A stretch of 25,850 nucleotides of DNA from an uncultured bacterium (GCA_964483805.1 CAZADH010000034.1:1-25850); one strand, 5' to 3'. Shown: positions 1,302 through 21,548, counted from the stretch's first letter. Numbers and translations are program-made. Notes: generated by a model from the letters alone, not told the origin.

Positions 1302-4300
1302 TTAGAACGGGTCGGCGTCAACCTTGGGACTGGCGGAACCCGAACCGGAACCGTTGGCCGGGGCTGCCGCACTGCCGCTACCGGCCGGTGTTGCGCTGCC
1401 TGTGCCGGATCCAGAGCCGGTCGGCGTCACGGCGCTGCCGGACCCTGCCGCTGCAGCGCTACCCGAGCCGGAACCGCCAGCAGCGGGGGGCGTCGTGGGG
1501 GCAACCGGAGCCGTGGCGCCCGAGGCCGAGGCACTGCCGGATCCGCTGCCGGTCGCAGTTGTCTGGTCGGAACCCGTTGCGGCTGGAGCGGCGGCGCTGC
1601 CGGAGCCCGCAGCGGATGCGCTTCCTGAACCGCTGCCCGCGGCCGCAGCACTGCCACTGCCGGCGGCGGCCGGACTGCCGGAACCGCTGCCTGCAGCAGG
1701 TTTGGGTGTATCGTCAAAGCCACCGAACCCGCCGTCATCGGCGGGTTTGCCGCTGGCTTTGCCGGAACCGCTGCCTGCAGCGGGTTTGGGCGTATCGTCG
1801 AAACCACCGAACCCACCGTCATCGGCGGGCTTGCCGCTGGCTTTACCGGAACCGCTGCCGGCAGCGGGTTTCGGGGTGTCATCGAAACCGCCGAAGCCAC
1901 CGTCACCGCCGGAAGTCGGCTTCACACCAGGCTTCGCCGAAGCATCGCCACTGGCCTTGCCGGAACCGCTGCCGGCGGCCGGCGGCTCGACGGTAGCCGA
2001 GCCGATTGCCTCGGTGCCACTGCCGGTGTCGCCGAGCAATGCTTCCTCGTCGTCGGGAATCAGACCCTGCTCGGGGGCGAGCAACGGATCGTCTTCTTCC
2101 ATGTTGTCGTAATACTCATCGCCACCGGTGCGCGCAGTACCGCTGGCAGCGCCGACGTCACCGGGCAGGAAGATGCCGGCCTGGCGACCGCTGGTGTCGT
2201 ACTTGTTCTTGAACTCGTCGCGCAGGCGGGTGTTGGCAGGGCTGAAGCCGAGCAAGCCCTGGATGCTGGGCGAGTAGGAAACGATCAGGCCGGCCACGAC
2301 GATCGAGACCAGGCTCATGACCTTGATGAGTGAGGTCAATGCCGGTCCGGATGCGTCTTTGAGCGAATTGCCGACGCTGCCCGACAGCACGACCGCTTTG
2401 TGACTATCGGACCCCTTACCGCCGCACTGGCCGCCTTCGATGTACTTCTTGGCGTTGTCCCAGGTGCCGCCGGTGTTGGTCAGGAAGCCGGCGAGAACGA
2501 AACCGGTGGCGAGTGCGCCTGCGAGCAGGCCCATAACGCCGTTGGCGCCGAGGAGGAGACCGACGAGGATGGGTGCTGCGAGAGCGGTGACAATCGGGAG
2601 GACCATCTCGTTCTGGACACCCGCGGTTACAGCGGTGATGCACTGGGCATGGTTGGCCTTGGCATTCGCATCGCCCTTGAGGAGCCCGGGGTTGTCGTGG
2701 AACTGGCGCTTGACCTCGGCAGCGAGCGCTTTCGCCGCGAGACCCACGGCTTTGAGCATCATCGATGCGAAGAGCGATGCCAGCATGGCACCCAACAACA
2801 GGCCACCCAACACCTGCGGGTTCAGCAGCGTGACGTCGAAGTAGCTCATGAAGTCGCCGACGACGGCCTTGTCGAGAGCCACGGCCTGGGTCGAGCTTGG
2901 GAACACGCACTTGTCGAAGCGGTCTCCGGTGGAATCGGCGTAGCGAATGAGTCCGGAGCGAATCGACTCGACGTAGGCCGCGAGCAGAGCGACGGCCGAG
3001 AGGGTGGCCGCAACGACGGCGTAACCGCGGCTCGACGCGGCGGTCGTGGCACCAAAAGCCAGGGCGTCGGTGCGTTTGCGCACGTCGGGGCCGGCCTGGG
3101 TCATTTCGGCACAGCGTGCTGCATTGTCGGCGATCGGGCCGTAGGCACCGGCCGTCAGGACCAACGACAACGGGGCCAGCATGCCGACTGCGGCCAGAGC
3201 GATGCCATAGAGGCCACGCGCAAAGGCGAAGTTGATCGGACCGGAGGCTGGATCATAGCCACCGGCGAACAGGAAGGCCAGAACCATACCGACGATCACC
3301 ACGATCAGCGTGGGGCCGACCGTGGAGCCCAAACCGATGGTCAGACCGGCGAGCAACACGGTATTGGGCCCGCTCGAAGCCTGCGTGGCAAGCTCCTGGG
3401 TGGGCGGGAACTCGGTCGAGGTGTAGTAATCGGTCGACCAGCCAATGACGATTCCGACCAGCAGGCCGACGCCGATCGATCCGCACAACTTGAAGTAATC
3501 GGGCATCATCGCATAGACGGCAAAGACGGCGATGGCCGCGAGCACTGCAGAAGAGATCAGGAGGCTGCGGTTGACGGTGCCGGCGAGGTCTTTCTGGGTC
3601 GCGTCTTCGGTGGCCCGAATCGACAGGACACCGAACAACGACGCGATGACGCCGGCGCCGGCAAGCACCAAAGGCAGGATGATGGCAGCAATCTGGAGGC
3701 TTTCGATGGAGGCCTTCTGGGCGGCGTCTTTGATTGCAGCGGTCTCAGGGCGGAACGCCGTGGCGCCGAGCGCGGCGGCAGCCAGGATCGCACCGAGATA
3801 CGACTCGTAGAGGTCGGTGCCGAGGGCCGACACGTCACTGACGTTGTTGCCCAGTTGAGCGGCGACCACGGCCGGATTCCGCGGATCGTCTTGCGGCGCG
3901 CCGGCTTCGTTCTTGGCAACCAGTTCGGCGCCCAGTTCGGTGGCCTTGGCAAACACGCCGCCGCCGGCACGGGCGAACAGGGCGTGAATACTGGCACCGA
4001 TCCCGAAGGTGAGCAGAATCGAGGTCAGGTCGACGTAGTCGCGAATGCCGAACCGGACCATGTAATTGCTATTGGGCCCGAATACGCCGGCATCGTTGGT
4101 CTGCGACATGGCCCAAGACAGAATCTTGAACCAGATCGAAATGTCGGCGAGCGCGAGACCCGCGGCGAGAAAGCCGATGACGGCAGCGCCGCGAACGGCC
4201 ATGTTCATGCCCGCCGCGAGCGATTGCTTGGCAGCCTCGGCGGTGCGCGCATTGGCATGGGCAGAAGCGATCAACCCCGCGTAGCCGGCGATCAACGAAA

Positions 4301-4589
4301 ACAGGCCGCCGAACAGAAACGCGATCGGGGTCCAGGCGCTCTGAGCCTTCAGTACATAGGCCAGGAAGGCAAAGAACAGGAAGCCGAAGAAGTAGCACAT
4401 ACCCACGGCGCGGTTCTGCTGCGAGAGGTACGCGACAGCACCGTCGTAGGTAGCCGTGGCGATGCTCTGGGCCTTGTCGTTGCCGGCCCCGGCCCGGATC
4501 ATCGCATCATAGAACCAGTAGGCAATGGCCAGGCCCAAGACGGCGCCAATAGGTGCCAACCAAAAAAGGGTTTCAGGCGATACATTCAC
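1302..4589 (-). CDS. hppA: Membrane-integral pyrophosphatase homolog (H+-translocating PPase / HppA family) with an atypical ~325-aa low-complexity C-terminal extension
   Basis: The 1095-aa ORF uses a GTG start, with GAGGAGG 12 nt upstream. M-PPase signatures are present: DDPRNPA, GPIADNA, DYYTS, GGTWDNAKKYIEGG, HKAVV...LKDASGP and about 16 hydrophobic helices. Canonical M-PPases end about 15 aa after the last TM, whereas here a ~325-aa G/S/A/T/P-rich tail follows. Several conserved acidic residues appear substituted (see findings). Confidence 0.85.
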   Translation of the reverse strand: MNVSPETLFWLAPIGAVLGLAIAYWFYDAMIRAGAGNDKAQSIATATYDGAVAYLSQQNRAVGMCYFFGFLFFAFLAYVLKAQSAWTPIAFLFGGLFSLIAGYAGLIASAHANARTAEAAKQSLAAGMNMAVRGAAVIGFLAAGLALADISIWFKILSWAMSQTNDAGVFGPNSNYMVRFGIRDYVDLTSILLTFGIGASIHALFARAGGGVFAKATELGAELVAKNEAGAPQDDPRNPAVVAAQLGNNVSDVSALGTDLYESYLGAILAAAALGATAFRPETAAIKDAAQKASIESLQIAAIILPLVLAGAGVIASLFGVLSIRATEDATQKDLAGTVNRSLLISSAVLAAIAVFAVYAMMPDYFKLCGSIGVGLLVGIVIGWSTDYYTSTEFPPTQELATQASSGPNTVLLAGLTIGLGSTVGPTLIVVIVGMVLAFLFAGGYDPASGPINFAFARGLYGIALAAVGMLAPLSLVLTAGAYGPIADNAARCAEMTQAGPDVRKRTDALAFGATTAASSRGYAVVAATLSAVALLAAYVESIRSGLIRYADSTGDRFDKCVFPSSTQAVALDKAVVGDFMSYFDVTLLNPQVLGGLLLGAMLASLFASMMLKAVGLAAKALAAEVKRQFHDNPGLLKGDANAKANHAQCITAVTAGVQNEMVLPIVTALAAPILVGLLLGANGVMGLLAGALATGFVLAGFLTNTGGTWDNAKKYIEGGQCGGKGSDSHKAVVLSGSVGNSLKDASGPALTSLIKVMSLVSIVVAGLIVSYSPSIQGLLGFSPANTRLRDEFKNKYDTSGRQAGIFLPGDVGAASGTARTGGDEYYDNMEEDDPLLAPEQGLIPDDEEALLGDTGSGTEAIGSATVEPPAAGSGSGKASGDASAKPGVKPTSGGDGGFGGFDDTPKPAAGSGSGKASGKPADDGGFGGFDDTPKPAAGSGSGKASGKPADDGGFGGFDDTPKPAAGSGSGSPAAAGSGSAAAAGSGSGSASAAGSGSAAAPAATGSDQTTATGSGSGSASASGATAPVAPTTPPAAGGSGSGSAAAAGSGSAVTPTGSGSGTGSATPAGSGSAAAPANGSGSGSASPKVDADPF
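1684..1935. repeat. Three tandem 84-bp (28-aa) direct repeats inside the hppA 3' region
   Basis: Unit ccgctgcctgcagc(a/g)ggtttggg(t/c)gtatcgtc(a/g)aa(g/a)ccaccgaacc... recurs at about 1684, 1768 and 1852. It encodes GGFGGFDDTPKPAAGSGSGKASGKPADD three times. The first two copies are near-identical. Confidence 0.8.
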
Positions 4590-4694
4590 GATGAACCGAG
4601 ACCTCCTCGCGCGCTAGAGATACCATCCGCACCGGATTCTGCACGAACGGCTGCGGAAACCGCTCGCTTTGTGCAACTACTCCGAGAACCTGAA

Positions 4695-4724
4695 AATATA
4701 GTGGTAATGCAAAGATACTGTCAA
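4695..4724 (-). promoter_or_regulatory. Sigma70-type promoter for hppA (-35 TTGACA, 18-nt spacer, -10 TATATT)
   Basis: On the minus strand, TTGACA is the complement of 4719-4724 and TATATT the complement of 4695-4700. The spacing is exactly 18 nt. It sits in the AT-richer divergent intergenic region 4590-4787 and predicts a 5'UTR of about 95 nt. Confidence 0.45.
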
Positions 4725-4787
4725 TGGCGTTGGCGCTGTTTTCACAATCTAAATGTGGCGGGTTGGTGAGCGTGGTATCATCGGCGT

Positions 4788-7097
4788 ATGGACAGAACAC
4801 AGACGACAAGACGGCAGCGTTTCGTTTCTTGGCTGGGCGTCGTCACGTGGGTACTGTTGGGCGTGGTGTCCGGATGGGCTCAAACCCCGGCGGTTCCGAC
4901 GACCATTGATGACGCAAGTGCAGCGGGTGAGGCTGCGGGTTCTCCGCGGGCCTTGTATCGACAGGCCCACGCCGATTTTACGGCCGGCCGAATCGATCAG
5001 GCCTGGACCACGGCCATCGGGGTGTTTCGCCAGGGACATCGGTCGGTCAACTTGTTGAACCTGTTGGCGGCGATCGAGTTGAAGGCTGGCCGTCAGGCGA
5101 TTGCCGGCTTGTGGCTGAAGAAGGCGTTGTGTTTCGATCCGGGCGACTCGACGGCGCGGCGTTTGCTGGCGCAGATGCCCCCGTCCCCGCGGCCGGTTCC
5201 CTTGCGGCCCAACCAGACACGCGAACACCTCGACGAGATCAGCCGGCAACTTCCGGAGTTGCTGTCGCGCCTGAACAATCCCCAGACCTTTGCGCGGCGG
5301 ATTCTCGAAGAGTTGCAGTTTGGTCGCTTCTATCACGCGTTGGCGCTGGCCGAAGAGTACGAGAAGCGGCATCCGGGGCCCGAAGCGCAGGGGTTATCGG
5401 CACTGGCGGCGATGTTTCTCGGGCAGAACCGCGAAGCGCTGGCCATGGCCGGCAATGCGCTGAAGACGGCGCCCGATCAGCCGATTGCAGCGACCGTGGT
5501 AGCCATGCTGACCGATACGAATCCGCTGTCGTCGACGTCGAGCAATGCGCGTTCGGCATACGATCGTGACCGATTCGGCGAAGCAATCGCGGCGGCCAAC
5601 CGACTCGTACAGATCGATGCGCGCAGTGCCGAAGGCAACCTGGTGCTGGCGCGAATCGCGCTCGATCGCCTCGACATGGCGACGGCAGACAAACAGTTGG
5701 CCGAAGCTCTGAAACGTGACCCGGACCACCCGTTGGCTCATTTGTACAACGTCGAGCTGGCGATGAACACCAACAATGCGTCGGCAGCCGCGCGCAGTCT
5801 CGATTTTGCGTGGCGTCGCGGTTACAACCTCCCGTCGGTCCGGTTGCGCGCCGGTCTTGTCGCGTTGGCAGGTGGCCGGGTGACCGAAGCCCGTCAGATC
5901 CTCGCTGATTGTCAGCAGATGATGCCGTTCGTTGACCGCGATGCCTGGCCGCTTTGCGTGCAACTTGGCATCAACGTCGATCCGGCCCACGTGAGAAACG
6001 TCCTGAAAACCTGGCGTGAGCGGTTGGGTACCACGGCTCTGTCGTGCTACTACGAGGCGCTCATCGAGCGCAACGCCAACAATATGGAGCGGGCTGTGGC
6101 GCTGATCAAGCAGGGCATGGCGGCGAACCCCGATCTCATCGCGCCGCTTCCTGCCGTGTCGTTAATCGCGAATCTCGCTGGTGATGCGGAGTTGGCCCGG
6201 GCCGTATTGGAACGGGTGGTGGCAGCCCGCCCCGACGATCAGGAGTTGCGTCGCCAGTTGTCGATGCTCACCACCAAGGTTTCGACCGAGGCGTCGATGG
6301 ACAAGCGTGACACCGGGCCGTTTACGGTCGAGCATCCGAGTGAGTTGTCGTCGGCGCTGCTCGACGCCGTTCTGGCGATGTTGAACCGGACCTACGGTGA
6401 TCTGACCCGTCTGTTCGGGATTTCACCCAAGCCGGTGCCGGTTCGCCTCGTCGTGACGCCGGGTGCCGGCGATCGCATTGCCTTGTTCGATCGGGCGTCG
6501 GGCAAACTGACGCTGTCGGTCATTCTCGGAGATGCCGACGGCATGGCCAAACTCGTGGCCGACATGTATCCCGAAGTGGCCAACAGCGAGCAGAAAGCAT
6601 TCGGTGAGCAGTTCGCCCGGCACACGCTGTTTCACGAGTTCAGTCATCTTCTGGTGGGCAAGGCGCTCGAAGGAGTCAAGCCCACCGGCATCCAGGCTAC
6701 CTGGTTGCATGAGGGCCTGGCCGAGGTCATTGGCGGTGAGTCCTCGGTGTTGTCGGTGCGCCTGAAACGCCTGCAGCAGGCGCGGCGCGACGGTAAATAC
6801 AAGATATTGGCACCGCCGGCGCTGAACGCGCTGTTGACGGCCACGAAGGCCTCCCCCGTCGAACTCGAGGGTGCGTATGCCCAGTCGTATCTGATGGTGT
6901 CGCACCTGCTCAAGAAATCGGGTGGATTGCTGGTGGGGCTGTCGTTGTTGATCGAGGCGATTCGCCAGCAAGAGACGGGCAAGTCGTTGAGTGAGACGTT
7001 GACGAACATCTACCAGGAAAACGCCGAGGTCTTTGCCCAGTCGTGGCAAGAGGCTGGCGAGCCGTGCATCGAAAAAGGACAACCGTTCACGTGGTGA
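4788..7097 (+). CDS. Secreted TPR-repeat protein with a C-terminal peptidase-MA-like (HExxH ... EGLAE) putative zinc metallopeptidase module
   Basis: The 769-aa protein has an N-terminal signal peptide (RRQRFVSWLGVVTWVLLGVVSGWAQT). Its middle portion is Ala/Leu-rich helical repeats (TPR-like). The C-terminal region carries HEFSHLLVGK...WLHEGLAEVIGG, matching the HExxH plus downstream EGxAE arrangement of Peptidase_MA_2-type domains. Confidence 0.6.
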   Translation: MDRTQTTRRQRFVSWLGVVTWVLLGVVSGWAQTPAVPTTIDDASAAGEAAGSPRALYRQAHADFTAGRIDQAWTTAIGVFRQGHRSVNLLNLLAAIELKAGRQAIAGLWLKKALCFDPGDSTARRLLAQMPPSPRPVPLRPNQTREHLDEISRQLPELLSRLNNPQTFARRILEELQFGRFYHALALAEEYEKRHPGPEAQGLSALAAMFLGQNREALAMAGNALKTAPDQPIAATVVAMLTDTNPLSSTSSNARSAYDRDRFGEAIAAANRLVQIDARSAEGNLVLARIALDRLDMATADKQLAEALKRDPDHPLAHLYNVELAMNTNNASAAARSLDFAWRRGYNLPSVRLRAGLVALAGGRVTEARQILADCQQMMPFVDRDAWPLCVQLGINVDPAHVRNVLKTWRERLGTTALSCYYEALIERNANNMERAVALIKQGMAANPDLIAPLPAVSLIANLAGDAELARAVLERVVAARPDDQELRRQLSMLTTKVSTEASMDKRDTGPFTVEHPSELSSALLDAVLAMLNRTYGDLTRLFGISPKPVPVRLVVTPGAGDRIALFDRASGKLTLSVILGDADGMAKLVADMYPEVANSEQKAFGEQFARHTLFHEFSHLLVGKALEGVKPTGIQATWLHEGLAEVIGGESSVLSVRLKRLQQARRDGKYKILAPPALNALLTATKASPVELEGAYAQSYLMVSHLLKKSGGLLVGLSLLIEAIRQQETGKSLSETLTNIYQENAEVFAQSWQEAGEPCIEKGQPFTW

Positions 7098-7132
7098 CAC
7101 CTGCTCGATGTCGGTTTGATGTCGGGTCGGTC

Positions 7133-12778: not shown

Positions 12779-15700
12779 CTACGCGTCGCCGCGCACTGTC
12801 CCGATTGGCTGAAACAACTGCACCGCCCGGCGTTTGCCCTTGACCGCCGTGACGGCGAGCGGGCGGCTTGGTGGGGCAGCCGCACCGAGCAGGTCGCAGG
12901 CCGTCGAAGTCATGATCAAACGCGGTTCCTGATGCAGGTCTTCGGCGAGCGCCTCGACTCTTGCTGCTGTATTTACAGTGTCGCCGATGACGGTGTGGTC
13001 TTGACGGTCGCCGGCACCGAGCAGGCCGATCAGTACCGGGCCCGCGTGGATGCCGAGGGCGACCGGATACGGCATGTCGCCGCGGGCGGCGGCGGCGAGC
13101 AGGCGTTGGCCGGCGTCGAGCGCTCCTTGGGTGGCCGCGGCGGGCGAGCTGTTCAGATGGTGGAACACGGCGAGAATCTTGTCGCCGATCATTTTATCGA
13201 CATCGCCGCCGGCCCGCTCGATTTCGCTGCAAATGACGCCGGCCTGGCGATTCAGGTTGGCGATCAAGGTGACCGGGTCGGCGGTGGCGCAGATGTGGGC
13301 AAACCCGGGAACGCCGAGGAACAGCACGGTGAGGTCACGGCTTTCGCCGGTGCGTGAGCGGTCGGCATCGGCATCGCTCAGGACGGCTTTGCGGGCCGAG
13401 GCCGACACCATGCGGCCGAGCAGCTCGCGTTCCTCGAGGCCGCGGGCCATCTGATTGAAGGTGCGACAGAGATCGCCCAGTTCGTCGGCACGCTCCTCGG
13501 GAAGCCGATGATCGTAGCGAGCCGCATCGATGGCGCGCATTCCTTCGCCCAGTGCTTCGATCGGTGCGAGCAGGTCGCGCGAGGCCGACATGGCCAGCAG
13601 CACCGTGGCCAGAAGGGCGAGCGACAACAGAAGGTTGAATGTCTGTGCGAGACGGCGGCTGGCCTCATCAATGGGAATCTCAGGACTGATACCGACGGTC
13701 ACCAGTTGTTGGCCGTGCGGATCGAGCACCGACTCGGCGAGATACCGTGTATTTACTTCAGAAATACGCAAGCTGACCGGGGCGTTGATGAGCGCCGTCA
13801 GTTGCGCAACGGCGCCGATGGTCGGCAGGGCCACGCTGCCTCGTGGGGTTGGCGGTTCGCCAAGGTAGTCGAGGCGCGAGGTGAAGAAAGGGTGCGTGCC
13901 GGACTGCGCATTCGCTACGCGCAGAATTGCATGCCAGTCAGGCATTGAAACTGCGAAGATCCAGATGAAGAGGTATTCCGGTTTCTGTTCGCTCGGAGAC
14001 AAGATCGGCGCAATAAAGGTCATGCCGACACTGCTGACCATGCGCATCGGTTCGTGCCAGCCGGCAAGGAGGTGGAAGAACAGGTCGGGGCCATAGATCG
14101 AGCGCATGATATCGAGGCCGGCGCTGGTGGTGAGTTCCTGCTTCGTCGTTTCCGTCAGTGTTCTCGCGTCGTCCCGGTGTGGCAGGTCGGGGTTGAGCAG
14201 CAGCAGACGCGAACCGCCGATGAAGCTCAGCGACTCGGCCAGTTGATCGGAATTGCCGACGTGGCCGCGCATACCTGCGTAGCGATAGGACCGGCGAAAA
14301 CCATGGGGTCCGACCAGCACCGAGCTGCTGAAGGAGATCTTGACGATGGGCCGTCGATAGACGTGGTGTGCCAGTGCGTCGAAGGTGGCCAGTAGCCTGT
14401 CGTTGGCAGCACTCGCATTCTTTCCCGAGGCCATCGCCTGTTGGTGCACGCGACGAGCCACGGCGAGCATCTTGGGCGACCGAGCAAGATTGAAGAGGTT
14501 CTCGACCAACCAGGCACGGTAGGCGGTTTTGCGTCGATGGGCGTCATCGATCTTGTTGCGCATGGCCGTGCGGACCTCGCGGACGGTGGTGTCGCGGTGT
14601 TCCTGAATCAAGGTGGCGGCCAGGGCAAAGGTCGTCGCCAGGGGCAGTAGCGCCGCCAGCAGAAAGCCAAACCACAACTGCCGGCTCAAGCTGACGGCGA
14701 TACCGGCATCGAAATACACTGTCAATATCCACAGGATGACGGCGGCCAATAGAGTGCCGCCGAGAGCCGCCAGGTTCAGCGCCCGGGCCGTCCCCGGTGA
14801 CAGACCGAAGACCGTTTGTGGCTCGGCGCGGCGGGTGGCGGCGATGACGCGGTACGGATTGCCAAGAGTCACCTGGTCGCTGGCGATGACCCAGCCGCTC
14901 GGAGGATTGGCGAAATCTGCCGTGGTCAGCCAGCGGGCGAGCGCGCCATGCCCCCACTGCGGGCTGGGATATCGTTCGTTGCCGTCGGGCGAGAGCAGGA
15001 CGAGCGCTGTGTCGCCGTCGTCGTAGTTGGCCATGAGCATGTGGGCCTTGCGTCTGGCCGTGATCGGCTCGCGGGGAATGGCAATCATGGCCGCGCCGAT
15101 CACTTTGGGAATTTGTGTCAGTATCGGCGCTATTCGTGGGGTGACCCCTTCCTGGGCAGCCTGGGACAGGATGGTGGTCGTGACGGCTTGCGGATCGGTG
15201 ATCGCCAGAGTCTGCCAGAACCACCAGACGGGGCGACCGGAGAGGAATCCCGCGCGGCAGTGTCCGCGGTTGCGTGCGGTGAGGTCCCGCACCGGAAGAT
15301 TCATGCCCAGTTGTGTATTGACAAATGATTGCAGGCTTCTTTCGGTTTCGCTCACCTCCCATGATGGCAGAACATTGGCGCTCCAGTCGGCGAGATAAGC
15401 AACGAGACGCCCGAGGTCGCGGGCATCGGCCGAAGCGACGCCGACCATACAGACCTCGGCGGGCGCGGCCCAGCGGTCGTGACGCGGTCGAACGACCGCA
15501 ACGGCAACCGGCCTGATCGCACTGTTGGAGCGATCGCCGGCAAGGAGTGTCTCGGATCCAGTCAGGCCCAGCTTCTCGCGAGTGAGTGATGGACCCGAAG
15601 AAGCCACGCGTCGGGCGATCTCCTCGGCGAACTCTCTCATTCTCTGATCGATGAGGCTCTCGGCAAAGTCCTGGGCCTTGACCAGCCGAAGAGCTGCCCG

Positions 15701-18700
15701 GTTCCTCTCATCGGCTTCGCGCTGCAACACCTGATGTTGTGCCATGTCGGCACTTGCGAGAGACCGCCACACCACGATTGCTGGTGTCGTTAACAGCAGG
15801 AATCCGGCGAGAAACAGCGCAAAGCGGAAAGTCGCAGTATGGTGTCTTGCTACTGGGGTCGTCGGTTGAGTTGTGAAGCCAGCGTCCCGCGCGTTGGCTC
15901 GCGGAGCGCCCGGTTCGGGTGCGCGGTGGGGAGAAGCCGGTTCGGCGTTACCGGGCATCGACCATCGGGTGGTCGTATTGCTGGTGTATGTCTCCTGTGA
16001 TGCTCTTGCCCCGGGTTCGGTAGTGCCTGCAATATCCGGCGCAACGGCCAGGGCCGCCATTGGTGCCGCGATGGTCGTGAGGTCGGCGGGGTCTACTCCC
16101 GCAAGATCGGCAACGGTCCGGCTGATCACGAGAGGCCACGACGGACACTGCTTGCTGGCCGCTTCCAAACGGGTGGCTTCCTTCACGGGTTCACCAACCA
16201 TCGTGAAGTCGAGTCGCGAGGTGGGGCTGCCGATGCCGCCGACCACGAGGGAGCCGGCCGCGATACCGATGCCGATCGCGTAGGGAAACTCCCGGCGGGC
16301 GGTGCGCGCGGCGTTGATGCGGGCCAGTTCGTGCAGCATCGCATGCCCCGCGCGGCAGGCGGCACGCGCTGTCTGCTCGAGCCCGGCATCCGGCCCGGAC
16401 GGTTCGAAAATGGCTTGAATGGCGTCGCCGATGAATTTGTCGACGCGACCGCCATGCGCCGAAATGATTGCATCCATGCGCGTGTAGTGCTGGTTCAACA
16501 ACGCGGTCATGACCGCGGGGGGATGGTGTTCGCAATGGGTGGTGAAGTCACGAATGTCTGAGACGAGGACGACGGCCTCTAGTCGATGGCCGGCCCCGAG
16601 ATGGGCCAGATCACGCGTCGAGGCGATGGCGTCCAGAGCTTTGCCCGAGACCAGCGCGGCTAGGCGCCGGCGGGTGCGCAGACCGGCGATCATTTCGGTG
16701 AAGGCGCACGTCAGTTGACCCAGTTCGTCGGGGCGGGCCAGATCGATCGATTGGTCGAGATCACCGACGGCGACGGCGTCGAGTGCCGCTTTGAGTTTAG
16801 CGATGGGCGTAACGATGCGGGTGCCCATCCAGAGTCCGAGCACGATCATGATGCCCAGGCTGACGACCAGAGACAGCCAGAGGTGACGTGCCATCTGGGC
16901 GAGATCCTGAGTGACCGGCGTCAATGGTGTTCCCATGGCGAGGATCATGTCGTTCATTTCGCGTGATGGCTGCGCGATCGAGACATACTGCCGGGCCTCG
17001 TCGACCACGAACACCGAGCCCTGCCGCACCGACGCGGTATTGGCGGTTGCATCGAGCAGGTGGCGGGTGAGGCGGGTTCCGCCGCTGACCGGTTCGAGTT
17101 GTCCGCGAACCCGGCGAAATGCGACAAAGTCGAGATCCGGCTGAGTGGCGCGGAGATGCCCGCTGGTGGTTTGCATGGCCGAGCGATCGAGATCGTTCTG
17201 CTGCCAAACCACGACCAGGCTGAACCTGGGGCGCCCGGCCACGGTGATGAAGTCGTGCAACTTGACGGTTTGGGAACGGCCGACCCGCATCAGTTCAGGC
17301 ATGCCGCAGGTGGCGAGGAGCGACGAAATTGCATCGGAACCGCAACTTTCCTCGTAGGCAGCGAGCAGGGCACGATCCTCTGTCGACAGCGGATCTGGAG
17401 GCAGACGCACGGTGGGATCGTGGTTGAGCATCATGTGTCGCAAGGTGCGGGTCATCGAACTGCGGTAGAAACGAACCATGGGTCGGACGTCGTCGAACTG
17501 GATCTCATTGGAACCGGTGGCGATGTACTGTCCGTTGCTGTCGTAGAGACAGATTGCCGCGACCGAGAGGGCCGGTGAAGCGGTGCGAAAATGCCAGGTG
17601 AGTCGATCGCACACCGACGCTCGTTGACGGTGCGGGCCAATCTGCAAAGCCGCCAACAACTCGGGATCGGCCAACGTGCGGCCAAATGCTGCCAGATAGT
17701 TTTCCTGCAGTTGATTGCGCCGGTGCTCGATTGCGCCGATCTCGGCCGTCAAGCGTGCTTGCATGTTGGCCAGCAACGTGGCTTCGTGTTCCTCCAGGGT
17801 GACGCGGGCCGCGATGAGTCCCAGGCCGATCGGGAGTGCGGAGGCGACGACGAACAAGCCGGCAAAACGCCATGACAGGCCGATGCGCATAGGTCTGCCG
17901 GCGACGGCATGGCGTGAAGCCAGGAGGAACAACAACAGCGCCGCAAGCACGTCGAGAGCGATGATCCCCGGTGCGAGTGGTTGTTGCGGTATGATGGGTA
18001 GCGCAATCAACGCGAGGTGACGTGCATCAGGAATGTACCACGTAAATACGCGATATTGACCGAGTCGCTTTCCCCAGGGAACCCCATCGCGTTCAATCTG
18101 CTCGAAGGGAAGACCATCCTTGCGGTTGGCCAGTTGCCGGCGAAAATCGGCCAGCCAGCGTCGGAACGTGGGCGAGCGGGCGAACGCGCTGGCCAGGACG
18201 TCGCAGCGCGGCCGTCCGACGAGTTGCACGAACCCGGTGAGCGGAAGTCCTGCGGGATTGCCTGGTCGGCCGGCCAAACCCGCGGTGCCGTGCGTGCTCG
18301 AACCAGACAGGCCGGCGGCAAGGCTGTCGGCCAGTTGCCGTCGGGCCAGACGCAAGCCGACGACCGTCGTCGTTGCGTTGTCTGGGGTCAGGAGAAAGTA
18401 GCCGCCGAGCGGACGTCCGGCGCGATCGCGCCAGACATCCCAGATCAACCAGTGAAAGCGGTTGGTGTAGACGATGCGTGTCGGCACGCCGCATTGCGTG
18501 CGGGCCAGCAGTTCGATGGGGATCTGGCCGCCGAAAAGGGAATCGATCAGTTTCTGTCCGCGCTGCCGTTCCGCACCGGTCGCCCGTCGCTCGGACTCGA
18601 GCACCAGATGGGCGAATGCGGTGGCCATGCTGCGTCGGCCCGTGCGGCTGCGCTCGGGTCCCAGGAGCAGTTCCGGGGCAACCGAGCCGGCAAGCCGATC

Positions 18701-19144
18701 TTGCGGCAGGCGGAACACCCACAACTCATGCGCCGGAAACGGGGGCTGCAGGACGGCCCGGGCCACGGCAGGGAGCAGGTCGGGACGTGCTTCGCCGGCG
18801 GTGTCGGTCGGTGTCCCCGTGGCCTGGTTGTGGTCCGCTGGCGGGTTGATGAACCCCAGCGGTTCACCCAGTTTCTGGTGGAGTTGGCCATGAAACCGCA
18901 CCAGTTGTCGGTGGAAACGCCAGGTCTCCCCCAGAGCGGCCAGCAACTGTCGGGCCTGTTCCTCCTGGGCAACGCCGGCCCGTCGATACGCCCGCTCGTT
19001 CTTGACCTTCCAGCCGATATTGATGACCAGTAACGGCACGACGGCCATCAACATGGGTAATATTACGGTAATGCTTCGTTTGGGGACCTGTGGGCGTCTG
19101 GTGGTTGGTGGTTGTGAACCCGCGGGAAAAACGCCTGGCACCAC
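12779..19144 (-). CDS. Giant (2121 aa) membrane receptor-type class III adenylate/guanylate cyclase made of two tandem modules. Each module is TM, periplasmic domain, 2 TM, periplasmic domain, TM, HAMP, cyclase homology domain.
   Basis: Two HAMP-like segments are present: PIAKLKAALDAVAVGDLDQSIDLARPDELGQLTCAFTEMIAGL and PIEALGEGMRAIDAARYDHRLPEERADELGDLCRTFNQMARGL. There are two cyclase homology domains. CHD1 (about 16060-16600) carries VVLVSDIRDFT ... GGRVDKFIGDAIQAIF ... GEPVKEATRLE. CHD2 (about 12817-13372) carries LTVLFLGVPGFA ... GGDVDKMIGDKILAVF ... GDTVNTAARVE. Eight predicted TM helices are arranged 1+2+1 per module, with a Pro/Ala/Thr-rich inter-module linker. The annotated GTG start lies 4 nt after the MMPL stop; an internal ATG about 90 nt downstream (MLMAVVPLLV) is an alternative. 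Confidence 0.8.
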   Translation of the reverse strand: MVPGVFPAGSQPPTTRRPQVPKRSITVILPMLMAVVPLLVINIGWKVKNERAYRRAGVAQEEQARQLLAALGETWRFHRQLVRFHGQLHQKLGEPLGFINPPADHNQATGTPTDTAGEARPDLLPAVARAVLQPPFPAHELWVFRLPQDRLAGSVAPELLLGPERSRTGRRSMATAFAHLVLESERRATGAERQRGQKLIDSLFGGQIPIELLARTQCGVPTRIVYTNRFHWLIWDVWRDRAGRPLGGYFLLTPDNATTTVVGLRLARRQLADSLAAGLSGSSTHGTAGLAGRPGNPAGLPLTGFVQLVGRPRCDVLASAFARSPTFRRWLADFRRQLANRKDGLPFEQIERDGVPWGKRLGQYRVFTWYIPDARHLALIALPIIPQQPLAPGIIALDVLAALLLFLLASRHAVAGRPMRIGLSWRFAGLFVVASALPIGLGLIAARVTLEEHEATLLANMQARLTAEIGAIEHRRNQLQENYLAAFGRTLADPELLAALQIGPHRQRASVCDRLTWHFRTASPALSVAAICLYDSNGQYIATGSNEIQFDDVRPMVRFYRSSMTRTLRHMMLNHDPTVRLPPDPLSTEDRALLAAYEESCGSDAISSLLATCGMPELMRVGRSQTVKLHDFITVAGRPRFSLVVVWQQNDLDRSAMQTTSGHLRATQPDLDFVAFRRVRGQLEPVSGGTRLTRHLLDATANTASVRQGSVFVVDEARQYVSIAQPSREMNDMILAMGTPLTPVTQDLAQMARHLWLSLVVSLGIMIVLGLWMGTRIVTPIAKLKAALDAVAVGDLDQSIDLARPDELGQLTCAFTEMIAGLRTRRRLAALVSGKALDAIASTRDLAHLGAGHRLEAVVLVSDIRDFTTHCEHHPPAVMTALLNQHYTRMDAIISAHGGRVDKFIGDAIQAIFEPSGPDAGLEQTARAACRAGHAMLHELARINAARTARREFPYAIGIGIAAGSLVVGGIGSPTSRLDFTMVGEPVKEATRLEAASKQCPSWPLVISRTVADLAGVDPADLTTIAAPMAALAVAPDIAGTTEPGARASQETYTSNTTTRWSMPGNAEPASPHRAPEPGAPRANARDAGFTTQPTTPVARHHTATFRFALFLAGFLLLTTPAIVVWRSLASADMAQHQVLQREADERNRAALRLVKAQDFAESLIDQRMREFAEEIARRVASSGPSLTREKLGLTGSETLLAGDRSNSAIRPVAVAVVRPRHDRWAAPAEVCMVGVASADARDLGRLVAYLADWSANVLPSWEVSETERSLQSFVNTQLGMNLPVRDLTARNRGHCRAGFLSGRPVWWFWQTLAITDPQAVTTTILSQAAQEGVTPRIAPILTQIPKVIGAAMIAIPREPITARRKAHMLMANYDDGDTALVLLSPDGNERYPSPQWGHGALARWLTTADFANPPSGWVIASDQVTLGNPYRVIAATRRAEPQTVFGLSPGTARALNLAALGGTLLAAVILWILTVYFDAGIAVSLSRQLWFGFLLAALLPLATTFALAATLIQEHRDTTVREVRTAMRNKIDDAHRRKTAYRAWLVENLFNLARSPKMLAVARRVHQQAMASGKNASAANDRLLATFDALAHHVYRRPIVKISFSSSVLVGPHGFRRSYRYAGMRGHVGNSDQLAESLSFIGGSRLLLLNPDLPHRDDARTLTETTKQELTTSAGLDIMRSIYGPDLFFHLLAGWHEPMRMVSSVGMTFIAPILSPSEQKPEYLFIWIFAVSMPDWHAILRVANAQSGTHPFFTSRLDYLGEPPTPRGSVALPTIGAVAQLTALINAPVSLRISEVNTRYLAESVLDPHGQQLVTVGISPEIPIDEASRRLAQTFNLLLSLALLATVLLAMSASRDLLAPIEALGEGMRAIDAARYDHRLPEERADELGDLCRTFNQMARGLEERELLGRMVSASARKAVLSDADADRSRTGESRDLTVLFLGVPGFAHICATADPVTLIANLNRQAGVICSEIERAGGDVDKMIGDKILAVFHHLNSSPAAATQGALDAGQRLLAAAARGDMPYPVALGIHAGPVLIGLLGAGDRQDHTVIGDTVNTAARVEALAEDLHQEPRLIMTSTACDLLGAAAPPSRPLAVTAVKGKRRAVQLFQPIGTVRGDA

Positions 19145-19148
19145 CGTA

Positions 19149-21548
19149 TCAGTCCTTGGGTTCTGTCGGTGACGCGGGCGGAATGGGGATCGGGCGGAAC
19201 AACTGCAGTGCCACCGGCGTGATCAGGAGCTCGCAAACCAGGTCGACGGCAACGCCGATTGAAATGAAGATGCCGAAATACCGCGTCGGCGAAAATGTTG
19301 ACAACGTCAATACAACAAAGCCGGCGCAGAGGGTCAGCATGGTCAGGAAGGTGGCCCTCCCCTTGTGGACCATGGTGCGCACCAGTGCCTCGTGTTCGTT
19401 GCCGTCTTTCTTCAACTCGTGCTTGAACTGGTGAATGATGTGGATGGTGTCGTCGACGGCCAGACCGATGGCAATCGAGGCAATCATGCCCGTGGCCGTG
19501 CTGAACGTGGTGCCGGTCAGTCCCATAATGCCGTACGTGTAGATGACCGGGATCACATTGGGGAAGATCGCGGTCAGTCCGACCTTCCAGGAGCCGAAGA
19601 ATATGGCCATCAGCACGGTGATGATCGCCAGCGACATCGAGAAACTGGTGATCTCGTTGTAGGCAATGACCTGGGCCACGTCGGCCCACATGGCCGCGCG
19701 TCCGGTGATCGTCGCTTTGATCGGCACGCCGGCGAATTCTCGGTTGATGTGGCCGCGGATCACCGCGAAGGCTTCGACCATCTCGCGGGACGTGCGATCG
19801 CGCATGCGCAGCGACACATGGGTCGTCATGGCGTTCGAGGCGATGAACTCGCCAAGCATGCCGCCGCTGGGAAACGCCGTAAACGTGCTGATCTCCAGGG
19901 GGCGCGCGCCGAAATTGAAGGTCTCGGAGGCGAAGCGGCGCCCGCCCGAGGCCACCGCCAGCTCGAGATCGTTCGCATCGTCGGCGAGTTCCTCGGGGTC
20001 GGACGCCGGCGTCGGCGAGTAGAAGTTCAGATAGTCGTGAATCTCCTGTTCGGTGGCCGGAATGTGATTGGGTTCGCCGCTGAACATGCGGTCGAAATCC
20101 TGCACCAGGTCAACATACGACAGCGACTTGTCGAGGATGCTGATGCTTGCCAGGCTGTCTTGCAAGCGCCGCACCCGATGCACCATGTCGACCTGCGTGA
20201 ACCGGGGGCCGCTGCTCTCTAGCAGAATCTCGACGGGGACGATGCCGCACAGGTTCTTTTCGACGTAGCGGTTGGCGTCCTGGATGGCATGATCGGCCGG
20301 CAGGAAACGAATGAGGCTGGTCTCGATCGGCAGAATCGAGATGCCATACAGAGAAATGGCCAGGAAAGCGAGAATCAGGCACCACACCTTGCGTGGATTG
20401 CCCAGAAGAAAGCGGGCGAGCCGCTCGAGATCGAGTTCGAGCCAGCGGATCGACCCGACATGCTTGCCGGTGCAGCGCGTGAGCATGATCAGCGCCGGCA
20501 CCAGGGTCAGCGCCAACAGCATGGCGAATACGGTGCCGAGTGCAGAATAGGCGCCAAACTGCGCGATCGCATCGACCGACTGGTAGATCAACGAACCGAA
20601 GCCGATCATGGTGGCCACGCCGGAGATCAAGAACGGGCGCAGCACATGCCGCATCGATTGGTGCAACAAGGCGGGGTCGAAGGTGTCGGTGTGACGCGTG
20701 CTTTCGAAATACTCTGTCAATACATGAATGACAAAGGTCAAGGCCACCGACAACACCATCGGTGGCAGGATCGAAGTGACGAAGTTGACCGAGTTGCCCA
20801 TCGCCATCATCGTTCCCTTGGTCCAGATCAGGGCGCAGATGATCGCCAACAAAGGCGCGAACAGACCGAAAGACGAGCGATAGAGCAGCCACAACACTCC
20901 GGCCATCAACAACACGGTCAATGGTGAGAACAACTTCTGATCGCGTCGGGTCATCTCGATGATCAGCCGGGTGATCTCGGGCACGCCGGTGAGTTGCGTG
21001 CCCAGCGGCATATTGCGGTCGAGGACTGCGCTCACCTCGGCGATCGAATCGGCGACCAGATCCCCCGTTTCCTGCTTCAGGCGGATGACCAGACCACCCA
21101 CCTTCCAGTCGGATGAAATGATGAGCCGGTCCATCGTCGTGGTCTTCTTCATGTTCTCGACGTAACGCTCGAGTTGGCGTTCGTCCTCGAGAAACTGCTC
21201 GAGCTGTTGCCATGTAGAAACGCCGAGATTCACCCGCAGGGCGGTGATTGGCGACAGAACTGTCTGCACATTGTGCAGTTCGAGCAGGGCCTGCTCGGTG
21301 GCGAACAACCGTCGCACCAGGGGGCGGTCGATCTTGTCGACCGGAAACGCCGCGAGCAGGATGCGGTCGTTGCCAAATGTGTTGAGAAACCGGTAATAGG
21401 CGGCGAGCGCTTCGTCGTGCAATACATTGTCTTCGAGCTTGTTGTCGATGCGCTCGAGGCGGGCGAACGGGGCCAGTTTCGCCGTGATCAACAGAACAAC
21501 GATCACGACCAGCCAGGCGAGACGACGGTTGCCGAACAATGTGTGCAT
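19149..21548 (-). CDS. MMPL / RND-superfamily exporter (COG1033-like, HpnN-type; 12 TM with two periplasmic loops)
   Basis: The 799-aa protein has two TM bundles separated by large loops. SSD/RND-like segments are LFSPLTVLLMAGVLWLLYRSSFGLFAPLLAIICALIW and GMIASIAIGLAVDDTIHIIHQF (the G..VDD.IH motif). Confidence 0.8.
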   Translation of the reverse strand: MHTLFGNRRLAWLVVIVVLLITAKLAPFARLERIDNKLEDNVLHDEALAAYYRFLNTFGNDRILLAAFPVDKIDRPLVRRLFATEQALLELHNVQTVLSPITALRVNLGVSTWQQLEQFLEDERQLERYVENMKKTTTMDRLIISSDWKVGGLVIRLKQETGDLVADSIAEVSAVLDRNMPLGTQLTGVPEITRLIIEMTRRDQKLFSPLTVLLMAGVLWLLYRSSFGLFAPLLAIICALIWTKGTMMAMGNSVNFVTSILPPMVLSVALTFVIHVLTEYFESTRHTDTFDPALLHQSMRHVLRPFLISGVATMIGFGSLIYQSVDAIAQFGAYSALGTVFAMLLALTLVPALIMLTRCTGKHVGSIRWLELDLERLARFLLGNPRKVWCLILAFLAISLYGISILPIETSLIRFLPADHAIQDANRYVEKNLCGIVPVEILLESSGPRFTQVDMVHRVRRLQDSLASISILDKSLSYVDLVQDFDRMFSGEPNHIPATEQEIHDYLNFYSPTPASDPEELADDANDLELAVASGGRRFASETFNFGARPLEISTFTAFPSGGMLGEFIASNAMTTHVSLRMRDRTSREMVEAFAVIRGHINREFAGVPIKATITGRAAMWADVAQVIAYNEITSFSMSLAIITVLMAIFFGSWKVGLTAIFPNVIPVIYTYGIMGLTGTTFSTATGMIASIAIGLAVDDTIHIIHQFKHELKKDGNEHEALVRTMVHKGRATFLTMLTLCAGFVVLTLSTFSPTRYFGIFISIGVAVDLVCELLITPVALQLFRPIPIPPASPTEPKD

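Follow-up and report, generated by a model that had tools for sequence, protein, structure and literature searches.

The DNA analysed here (the window) is a stretch of 25,850 nucleotides from an uncultured bacterium (GCA_964483805.1 CAZADH010000034.1:1-25850), in which one open reading frame (ORF) on the minus strand, at 12779..19144 with the stop codon counted in the coordinates, encodes without interruption a protein of 2121 amino acids that we describe as a tandem receptor cyclase. The Pfam scan of this protein gave two HAMP stretches (PF00672, 90.1 bits, cut-off 25) and two cyclase stretches (PF00211, 88.7 bits, cut-off 21.9), and at E ≤ 1 no family besides HAMP and Guanylate_cyc was found along its length. 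Both cyclase homology domains, CHD1 and CHD2, pass the profile threshold of the class III cyclases. Eight transmembrane (TM) helices were predicted by a hydropathy scan, at residues 25-43, 390-408, 427-445, 755-773, 1108-1126, 1458-1476, 1495-1513 and 1836-1854, and each half of the protein follows the plan TM, ~345 residues outside, TM, TM, ~310 residues outside, TM, HAMP, CHD, with each HAMP (profile match above threshold) directly after the last TM helix of its own module. An AlphaFold2 (AF2) model of module 1 matches this layout. Pfam and hydropathy thus agree with an earlier reading of the window made from the sequence only, in which the gene was described as two sensor-HAMP-cyclase modules on one chain, each with two large periplasmic stretches. 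The coordinates of all features are collected in Table 1. A database protein with 100% identity to the window protein (P0001, 2091 aa) is annotated at NCBI with a start 30 codons later. We favour the GTG at 19144 as the start codon, since AAGGA is located 8 nt upstream of it and since a complete TM1, the hydrophobic stretch of which starts at about residue 25, needs the earlier start and would be shortened by the later ATG.

In order to assign the catalytic residues, both CHDs were aligned pairwise with PDB sequences, all of which were searched using phmmer, and were placed in an alignment of family CHDs. The best PDB match of both domains was CyaB from Pseudomonas aeruginosa (3r5g; E 1.1e-17 for CHD1 and 9.4e-12 for CHD2), and further matches of both were Cya2, the 'photoactivated adenylyl cyclase' entries 5mbg and 5x4t, and CyaC from Spirulina (1wc0). 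The class IIIa cyclase Rv1625c scored 1e-6 to 1e-7, where the best bacterial matches reached 1e-17 and 9e-12, and no mammalian membrane adenylyl cyclase (AC) was found among the PDB sequence matches of either CHD at E ≤ 1e-3. Class IIIb cyclases have Thr instead of Asp at the substrate-specifying position, paired with Lys, and we take CyaB, CyaC and the photoactivated adenylyl cyclases to belong to this class, among whose enzymes a response to bicarbonate or CO2 is common. Two positions which, from structures of transmembrane ACs (tmACs) and CyaC, we also take to be catalytic were included, namely a phosphate-binding Arg from the metal-binding domain and a gamma-phosphate Lys from the 'VKGK' hairpin of its partner.

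The motifs and codons quoted in the sequence-only reading were all located where it had placed them. In CHD1 these are SDIRDFT (residues 862-868, 16541-16561), (K)FIGD (903-907, 16424-16438) and GEPVKEATRLE (984-994, 16163-16195), and in CHD2 LFLGVPGFA (1941-1949, 13298-13324, codons ctg ttc ctc ggc gtt ccc ggg ttt gcc) and GDTVNTAARVE (2054-2064, 12953-12985), with KMIGD at residues 1984-1988. Both metal-binding Asp are kept in CHD1 (D863, 16556-16558; D907, 16424-16426), where K903 and T981 align on the substrate pair, R992 on the transition-state Arg and R977 on the phosphate Arg. K988 (16181-16183) aligns with high posterior confidence on the transition-state Asn of 'GREVNLASRLE', and the gamma-phosphate Lys of the 'VKGK' motif is absent from CHD1. 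In CHD2, G1944 (13313-13315) aligns, likewise with high posterior confidence, on the first metal Asp of 'FFSDIRGFT', and K1984 (13193-13195), D1988, T2051 (12992-12994), N2058 (12971-12973) and R2062 (12959-12961) are canonical, as are the phosphate Arg R2047 and the gamma-phosphate Lys K2102 (12839-12841). The alignments to the solved class IIIb cyclases therefore bear out three earlier claims: that CHD1 has both metal Asp and Lys in place of Asn, that CHD2 has Gly in place of the first metal Asp with Lys, Asn and Arg intact, and that Thr occupies the substrate-specificity position of both domains (T981, T2051). Neither the pairwise nor the family alignments placed Asp at the first metal position of CHD2 or Asn at the transition-state position of CHD1. 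A full catalytic set is found across the interface only when CHD1 (D863, D907, R977) is combined with CHD2 (K1984, T2051, N2058, R2062, K2102). The reciprocal site carries three defects (G1944, K988 and the missing gamma-phosphate Lys of CHD1), so that the earlier description of a single competent site stands, while its doubly degenerate counterpart is in fact defective at three positions. The pair K1984/T2051 of CHD2 is that of class IIIb, and because of this Lys/Thr pair ATP is predicted to be the substrate and cyclic AMP (cAMP) the product.

A word-indexed search identified one homologue that is collinear over the full length. This protein, P0002 (2005 aa, 25% identity, 98% coverage), has the same 8-TM plan, and in it the reciprocal split is cleaner still. 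Its CHD1 keeps both Asp, with R for K, L for T, K for N and E for R, and its CHD2 has lost both Asp and keeps K, T, N and R. A profile built only from the module-1 sensor regions of P0002 and the window protein, without HAMP or CHD, was searched against 1.84 billion representative proteins and gave 134 matches, 105 of them at E ≤ 1e-10. Two CHD matches were observed in 65 of the 134, including P0034 (1023 aa), in which a single CHD is split in two, leaving 64 tandem proteins with lengths of 1681-2254 aa (mostly ~1900-2250 aa). One CHD is present in 41 members, 25 of which are 958-1023 aa long, and the rest of the 134 are fragments. Every family member with a named source is a protein from a metagenome-assembled genome (MAG) of Candidatus Riflebacteria or Candidatus Ozemobacteraceae, and a genome scan with a four-sequence sensor alignment gave three loci, from two Riflebacteria MAGs and one unclassified MAG. 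Judging by these homologues, the window too probably stems from a Riflebacteria-type bacterium. The annotation of the family is generic: 'adenylate/guanylate cyclase domain-containing protein', 'HAMP domain-containing protein', 'class 3 adenylate cyclase' or 'hypothetical'.

To count residues at the catalytic positions, 169 CHDs were aligned with MAFFT, CyaB serving as the reference and the tandem proteins being represented by 64 clusters. In CHD1, the first and the second metal Asp are present in 64/64 and the phosphate Arg in 63/64, and the transition-state Asn is retained in four clusters (Lys in 42), the Arg in five and the gamma-phosphate Lys in five. In CHD2, the Lys, Thr, Asn, Arg and gamma-phosphate Lys positions are canonical in 64/64; the first metal position is Asp in a single cluster (Gly in 43) and the second is Glu in 31, Asp in 23 and Gly in 7. 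Consequently, the site formed by the two Asp of CHD1 and the K, T, N and R of CHD2 (site A) is canonical in all 64 clusters and the reciprocal site (site B) in none. A complementary pattern that recurs in every tandem cluster is not due to chance, and strict conservation of the two reciprocal residue sets is what would be expected if only the heterotypic interface is catalytic. The mean pairwise identity is 0.40 among CHD1s, 0.34 among CHD2s and 0.22 between the two types, each of which is ~0.27 identical to CyaB. Since identity within each type exceeds that between types, the specialisation of CHD1 and CHD2 predates the radiation of the family.

The CHD alignment gave a C1-like signature for all 41 single-CHD members, with Lys at the Asn position in 17 of them. 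At each of the six loci examined, the single-CHD gene (alpha) is directly followed by a gene on the same strand, overlapping it by 4 nt in three loci, separated from it by 1 and 5 nt in two and by 107 nt in L007. Where complete, the downstream genes encode HAMP and CHD proteins of ~1000 aa with a C2-like signature (beta); thus, in L007 a DKDSKH gene (8001-10970) is followed by a GKDTNR gene (11078-14092), and in L011 a DRDR-VAAY gene by a SKPR-TNRK gene. In L005, L012 and L013 the contig ends within the downstream gene, and the part left in L005 has an hhalign match to the module-2 sensor profile (89% probability, E 2e-6). Three family genes follow one another in L006 (4782-13995, +), in this order: a beta-like NKETNR, an alpha-like DKDTAH and a beta-like AKGTNR gene, and one alpha subunit might here choose between two beta partners with different sensors. 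In sensor-only phmmer searches, the alpha sensors matched only module 1 of the window protein (E 1e-66 to 1e-78) and the beta sensors only module 2 (E 1e-22 to 1e-48), so that the window protein corresponds module for module to an alpha-beta fusion. Fused and two-gene states coexist in the same family. Directly downstream of the split pair in L011, a 429-aa gene (6718-8007, +) encodes a cNMP_binding domain and a weak HATPase_c_2 match, and its product is a plausible cAMP effector.

The pairing of the two CHDs was modelled with AF2 in the homologue P0088 (signatures DKDAKK / GKETNR), using residues 735-1925 and a 37-sequence family alignment; P0088 is shorter than the window protein, whose CHD1-to-CHD2 span of ~1255 aa lies above the 1200 aa that could be modelled. 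In the resulting model (predicted local distance difference test score, pLDDT, 79.3; predicted template modelling score, pTM, 0.56), CHD1 and CHD2 are predicted to form an intramolecular head-to-tail dimer as in soluble AC (sAC) and AC9. The modelling of an intramolecular dimer that the earlier reading had proposed was thus borne out for the head-to-tail arrangement, in a homologue and not in the window protein itself. The P0088 segment equivalent to the linker between CHD1 and TM5 has pLDDT <50. A second AF2 model, of residues 1-775 of the window protein (13 sequences; pLDDT 80.7, pTM 0.68), shows in each periplasmic segment a long stalk helix that leads into two alpha/beta lobes, for which a dCache or tandem PAS fold is plausible, with moderate strength; no Pfam Cache family matched the 2121-aa protein at E ≤ 1. 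By hhalign, the region from TM3 through domain B to TM4 is distantly related to its counterpart in module 2 (78% probability, E 1.8e-5), a modest signal seen for the second periplasmic domain only, and BLASTP of module 1 against module 2 found no similarity outside HAMP and CHD. Domains A and B within module 1 gave a weak signal when compared with each other (27% probability, E 6.5e-4), and an internal duplication is not claimed.

Taken together, these results make it probable that the window protein is a class IIIb receptor adenylyl cyclase built as a covalently fused alpha-beta pseudo-heterodimer, with one competent ATP-to-cAMP site and one degenerate pseudo-site. In this enzyme, CHD1 would supply the two metal-binding Asp and the phosphate Arg. 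The Lys/Thr pair that selects adenine would come from CHD2, together with the transition-state Asn/Arg and the Lys for the gamma-phosphate, and a head-to-tail CHD1:CHD2 dimer would therefore contain exactly one competent site. From general knowledge of HAMP receptors and class III cyclases, periplasmic ligands would be expected to regulate activity: TM4-HAMP1 and TM8-HAMP2 would come together as a single four-helix HAMP bundle, CHD1 and CHD2 would be positioned by its two output helices, and a ligand-induced change in either half would then alter the single site. Up to four extracytoplasmic inputs may in this way converge on one centre, as the sequence-only reading had also proposed. More speculatively, the pseudo-site may be a regulatory pocket, Lys recurring at the Asn position of CHD1 in 42/64 clusters, and it could then be likened to the site at which tmACs bind forskolin or to that for bicarbonate in sAC. 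The wider proposal, that a tmAC-like receptor cyclase arose independently in Riflebacteria, with fused and two-gene states surviving and the pseudo-site re-used as an allosteric pocket, is tentative and in our view rather doubtful as a whole; if true, up to four periplasmic Cache-like inputs and one cytoplasmic input would act on a single catalytic centre.

Several observations weigh against a fused pseudo-heterodimer with a single site. CHD1 of the window protein (DKDTKR) is the least degenerate in the family. Only three residues are missing from the second site (the first Asp, the Asn and the gamma-phosphate Lys), which may therefore have weak residual function. The second metal position of CHD2 is also still Asp in this protein (D1988). 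The modelled P0088 is only 22% identical to the window protein over the aligned region, and AF2 cannot distinguish intramolecular from domain-swapped pairing. The latter point bears on an intermolecular arrangement, in which two tandem chains would associate through HAMP1:HAMP1' and HAMP2:HAMP2' and each CHD1 would pair with CHD2 of the other chain to give two sites. HAMP and Cache receptors are normally homodimers, and the split alpha/beta pairs suggest that CHD1:CHD2 pairing between chains would work in this family. However, CHDs that extend from the same HAMP dimer usually associate among themselves, and dead CHD1:CHD1' and CHD2:CHD2' dimers would be the result here; moreover, the P0088 model predicts an intramolecular dimer, and the linker of ~70 residues (1039-1107) is long enough for one. 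We therefore regard the intermolecular arrangement as unlikely.

The remaining explanations dispense with the heterotypic active site altogether. Most bacterial class III cyclases are homodimers (PMC9552081), and the chain could accordingly carry two independent homodimeric cyclases in which the substitutions are tolerated. A CHD2 homodimer would, however, be without the first metal Asp in 63/64 clusters and a CHD1 homodimer without Asn, Arg and gamma-phosphate Lys in most; the losses of the two domains mirror each other exactly, and wherever the gene next to a single-CHD member is complete, it is complementary. We give this explanation next to no credence, and the comparative data argue strongly for obligate CHD1:CHD2 pairing. 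The tandem CHDs could also be a silent pseudo-enzyme that binds ATP as a sensor or scaffold and makes no cyclic nucleotide, like PDB 6yii, a bacterial single-chain tandem-CHD protein from P. aeruginosa that resembles a class III AC and is described as ATP-binding and not as a cyclase. Against this, all eight residues of one active site are under strict purifying selection across the 64 clusters, which binding alone would not be expected to need, neither CHD matches 6yii at E ≤ 1e-3 (phmmer), and a cNMP-binding protein is encoded beside one family member. A silent pseudo-enzyme is hence very improbable, and the fused pseudo-heterodimer with one competent site remains the reading that we prefer.

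The sequence-only reading had equated this arrangement with the C1/C2 design of eukaryotic membrane ACs. The likeness holds as a functional and convergent one, and not as membership of that group. Eukaryotic membrane ACs (AC1-9, class IIIa; bovine AC9, PDB 6r3q) are pseudo-heterodimers of the form TM1-C1-TM2-C2 and share with the window protein the complementary degeneracy of their CHDs. In contrast to tmACs, the window protein is of class IIIb, with Thr and not Asp at the substrate position, and has 2x4 and not 2x6 TM helices, a HAMP domain before each CHD and four large periplasmic Cache/PAS-like domains, whereas tmACs are without large extracellular domains. Its nearest solved relatives are bacterial class IIIb cyclases and no mammalian membrane AC was matched at E ≤ 1e-3, which argues for an origin independent of tmACs. 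Single-chain tandem CHDs are also known from ADCY10, Leptospira LA_4008 and PDB 6yii. These proteins are soluble, with the CHDs adjacent at the N-terminus, and LA_4008 continues with an AAA-ATPase and TPR repeats (PMC3789758), whereas the CHDs of the window protein are ~900 residues apart, separated by a membrane sensor and HAMP in a protein with eight predicted TM helices. Unlike the long sAC-like forms, the window protein has no ATPase or TPR domains (Pfam, E ≤ 1), and its similarity to sAC is marginal (phmmer, E ~5e-4, CHD2 only). A sAC-like cyclase is also reported from Chloroflexus (Kobayashi 2004, as cited in PMC11006738).

Soluble guanylyl cyclase alpha/beta and fungal RGC/NeoR are heterodimers encoded by two genes, and the split members of the present family are likewise adjacent alpha and beta genes with reciprocal losses. 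This family differs from them in being bacterial, of membrane receptor type and predicted to be ATP-specific, and in having a fused form as well. Among bacterial cyclases, Rv3645 and Rv1319c from Mycobacterium tuberculosis presumably have the same order of TM anchor, HAMP and CHD, with HAMP as the presumed signal converter; unlike the window protein, we take them to be symmetric homodimers with two equivalent sites and without large periplasmic Cache-like domains. A different, likewise unusual receptor-cyclase architecture was seen in P0003 (1946 aa), where two FtsX/MacB-type permease modules (PF02687, PF12704) are combined with HAMP and a single, canonical-looking CHD ('FCDIRGFT ... GDTVNLASR').

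That a class III cyclase can be a pseudo-heterodimer with a single active site is a textbook principle. What appears to be undescribed is its realisation as a bacterial receptor, the confinement of this type to one lineage and the coexistence of split and fused forms. In the literature outside subscription journals, which makes this weak evidence, we found no description of a bacterial receptor-type fused pseudo-heterodimer or of this family, nor of natural bacterial alpha/beta cyclase gene pairs. The arrangement had been called unusual for bacteria in the sequence-only reading, and this is upheld for the receptor form; it is not a one-off, as it belongs to a family specific to Riflebacteria, and soluble tandem CHDs are known in bacteria. 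According to a 2022 review, the class III cyclases of bacteria are homodimers, and the duplication and fusion behind the pseudo-heterodimeric membrane ACs date to early eukaryotes. Its homodimer-only statement is too strong, since LA_4008 (PMC3789758) and PDB 6yii are bacterial tandem CHDs. The present family suggests that bacteria arrived at the pseudo-heterodimeric design on their own, using a class IIIb scaffold and recognisable periplasmic sensors. It would provide a prokaryotic system for asking what is gained from linking two different receptor halves to one active site and how one catalytic centre is brought under the joint control of two anchor or sensor domains. The reasons for the fusion and asymmetry of cyclase halves, and the way in which they come about, should be tractable in it as well. 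Meanwhile, generically annotated Riflebacteria proteins of at least 64 clusters can be flagged as predicted obligate heterodimeric enzymes.

Table 1. Features of the tandem receptor cyclase gene and of the gene upstream of it, in window coordinates.
Feature	Coordinates	Strand	Evidence
Tandem receptor cyclase, whole gene, GTG start	12779..19144	-	ORF; P0001
TM1, residues 25-43	19016..19072	-	hydropathy scan; helix 22-74 in AF2 model
Periplasmic domain A, module 1, residues 44-389; stalk helix and two alpha/beta PAS/Cache-like lobes	17978..19015	-	
TM2, short cytoplasmic loop and TM3, residues 390-445	17810..17977	-	hydropathy, AF2 model
Periplasmic domain B, module 1, residues 446-754; stalk and double alpha/beta lobe as in domain A	16883..17809	-	AF2 model; hhalign to module 2
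TM4, residues 755-773	16826..16882	-	hydropathy scan
HAMP 1, residues 772-823	16676..16831	-	PF00672, profile positions 1-52 of 53
CHD1, 'C1-like', ~residues 853-1038	16031..16588	-	Pfam, phmmer, family alignment
Pro/Thr/Ala-rich linker from CHD1 to TM5, residues 1039-1107, in C1b tether position	15824..16030	-	sequence
TM5, residues 1108-1126	15767..15823	-	hydropathy scan
Periplasmic domain C, module 2, residues 1127-1457	14774..15766	-	hydropathy; same helix and beta-sheet layout in P0088 model
TM6, loop and TM7, residues 1458-1513	14606..14773	-	hydropathy scan
Periplasmic domain D, module 2, residues 1514-1835	13640..14605	-	hydropathy, hhalign, P0088 model
TM8, residues 1836-1854	13583..13639	-	hydropathy scan
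HAMP 2, ~residues 1853-1904	13433..13588	-	second Pfam HAMP stretch; limits from ungapped BLASTP to HAMP 1
CHD2, 'C2-like', ~residues 1934-2115	12800..13345	-	Pfam, phmmer, family alignment
MMPL/RND-type transporter, 799 aa, upstream of cyclase	19149..21548	-	PF03176, 1.5e-34; sterol-sensing and Patched SSD matches

The context of the gene is chromosomal, with a cluster of glyceraldehyde-3-phosphate dehydrogenase, phosphoglycerate kinase and triosephosphate isomerase genes (GAPDH-PGK-TIM) followed by the MMPL transporter and the cyclase, and megablast of the window against plasmids gave no match. Since the MMPL stop codon lies 4 nt before the cyclase start, the two genes are probably co-transcribed here, and the position of AAGGA inside the 3' end of the MMPL gene, with the stop codon 4 nt away, suggests translational coupling. 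MMPL was rejected as a conserved operon partner, as PMT_2 and family-2 glycosyltransferase (GT2) genes are found upstream in the P0002 and P0017 loci instead. There, but not in the window, the PMT_2 and GT2 genes (L001, 1267-3950, -; L008, 2404-7478, -) are located divergently upstream of P0002 and P0017, two distant tandem-cyclase homologues. Either residual synteny or a functional tie to glycosylation of the envelope could account for this proximity.

Elsewhere in the window, a 937-aa ORF (8575-11388, +) matches the Major Vault Protein shoulder (PF11978, 1.9e-26) and the vault repeat (PF17795, 3.1e-08) and no PDB sequence at E ≤ 1e-3 (phmmer); vault-protein homologues are, to our knowledge, rare in bacteria. 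An H+-pyrophosphatase ORF of 1095 aa (1302-4589, -) is covered by Pfam over residues 17-765, leaving an extension of ~330 aa unexplained, and is overlapped on the other strand by a 789-aa ORF without Pfam match (2400-4769, +). Adjoining the 3' end of the cyclase gene on the opposite strand is an ORF (11456-12490, +) of the PD-(D/E)XK_2 'transposase' family (PF12784, 2.8e-45).

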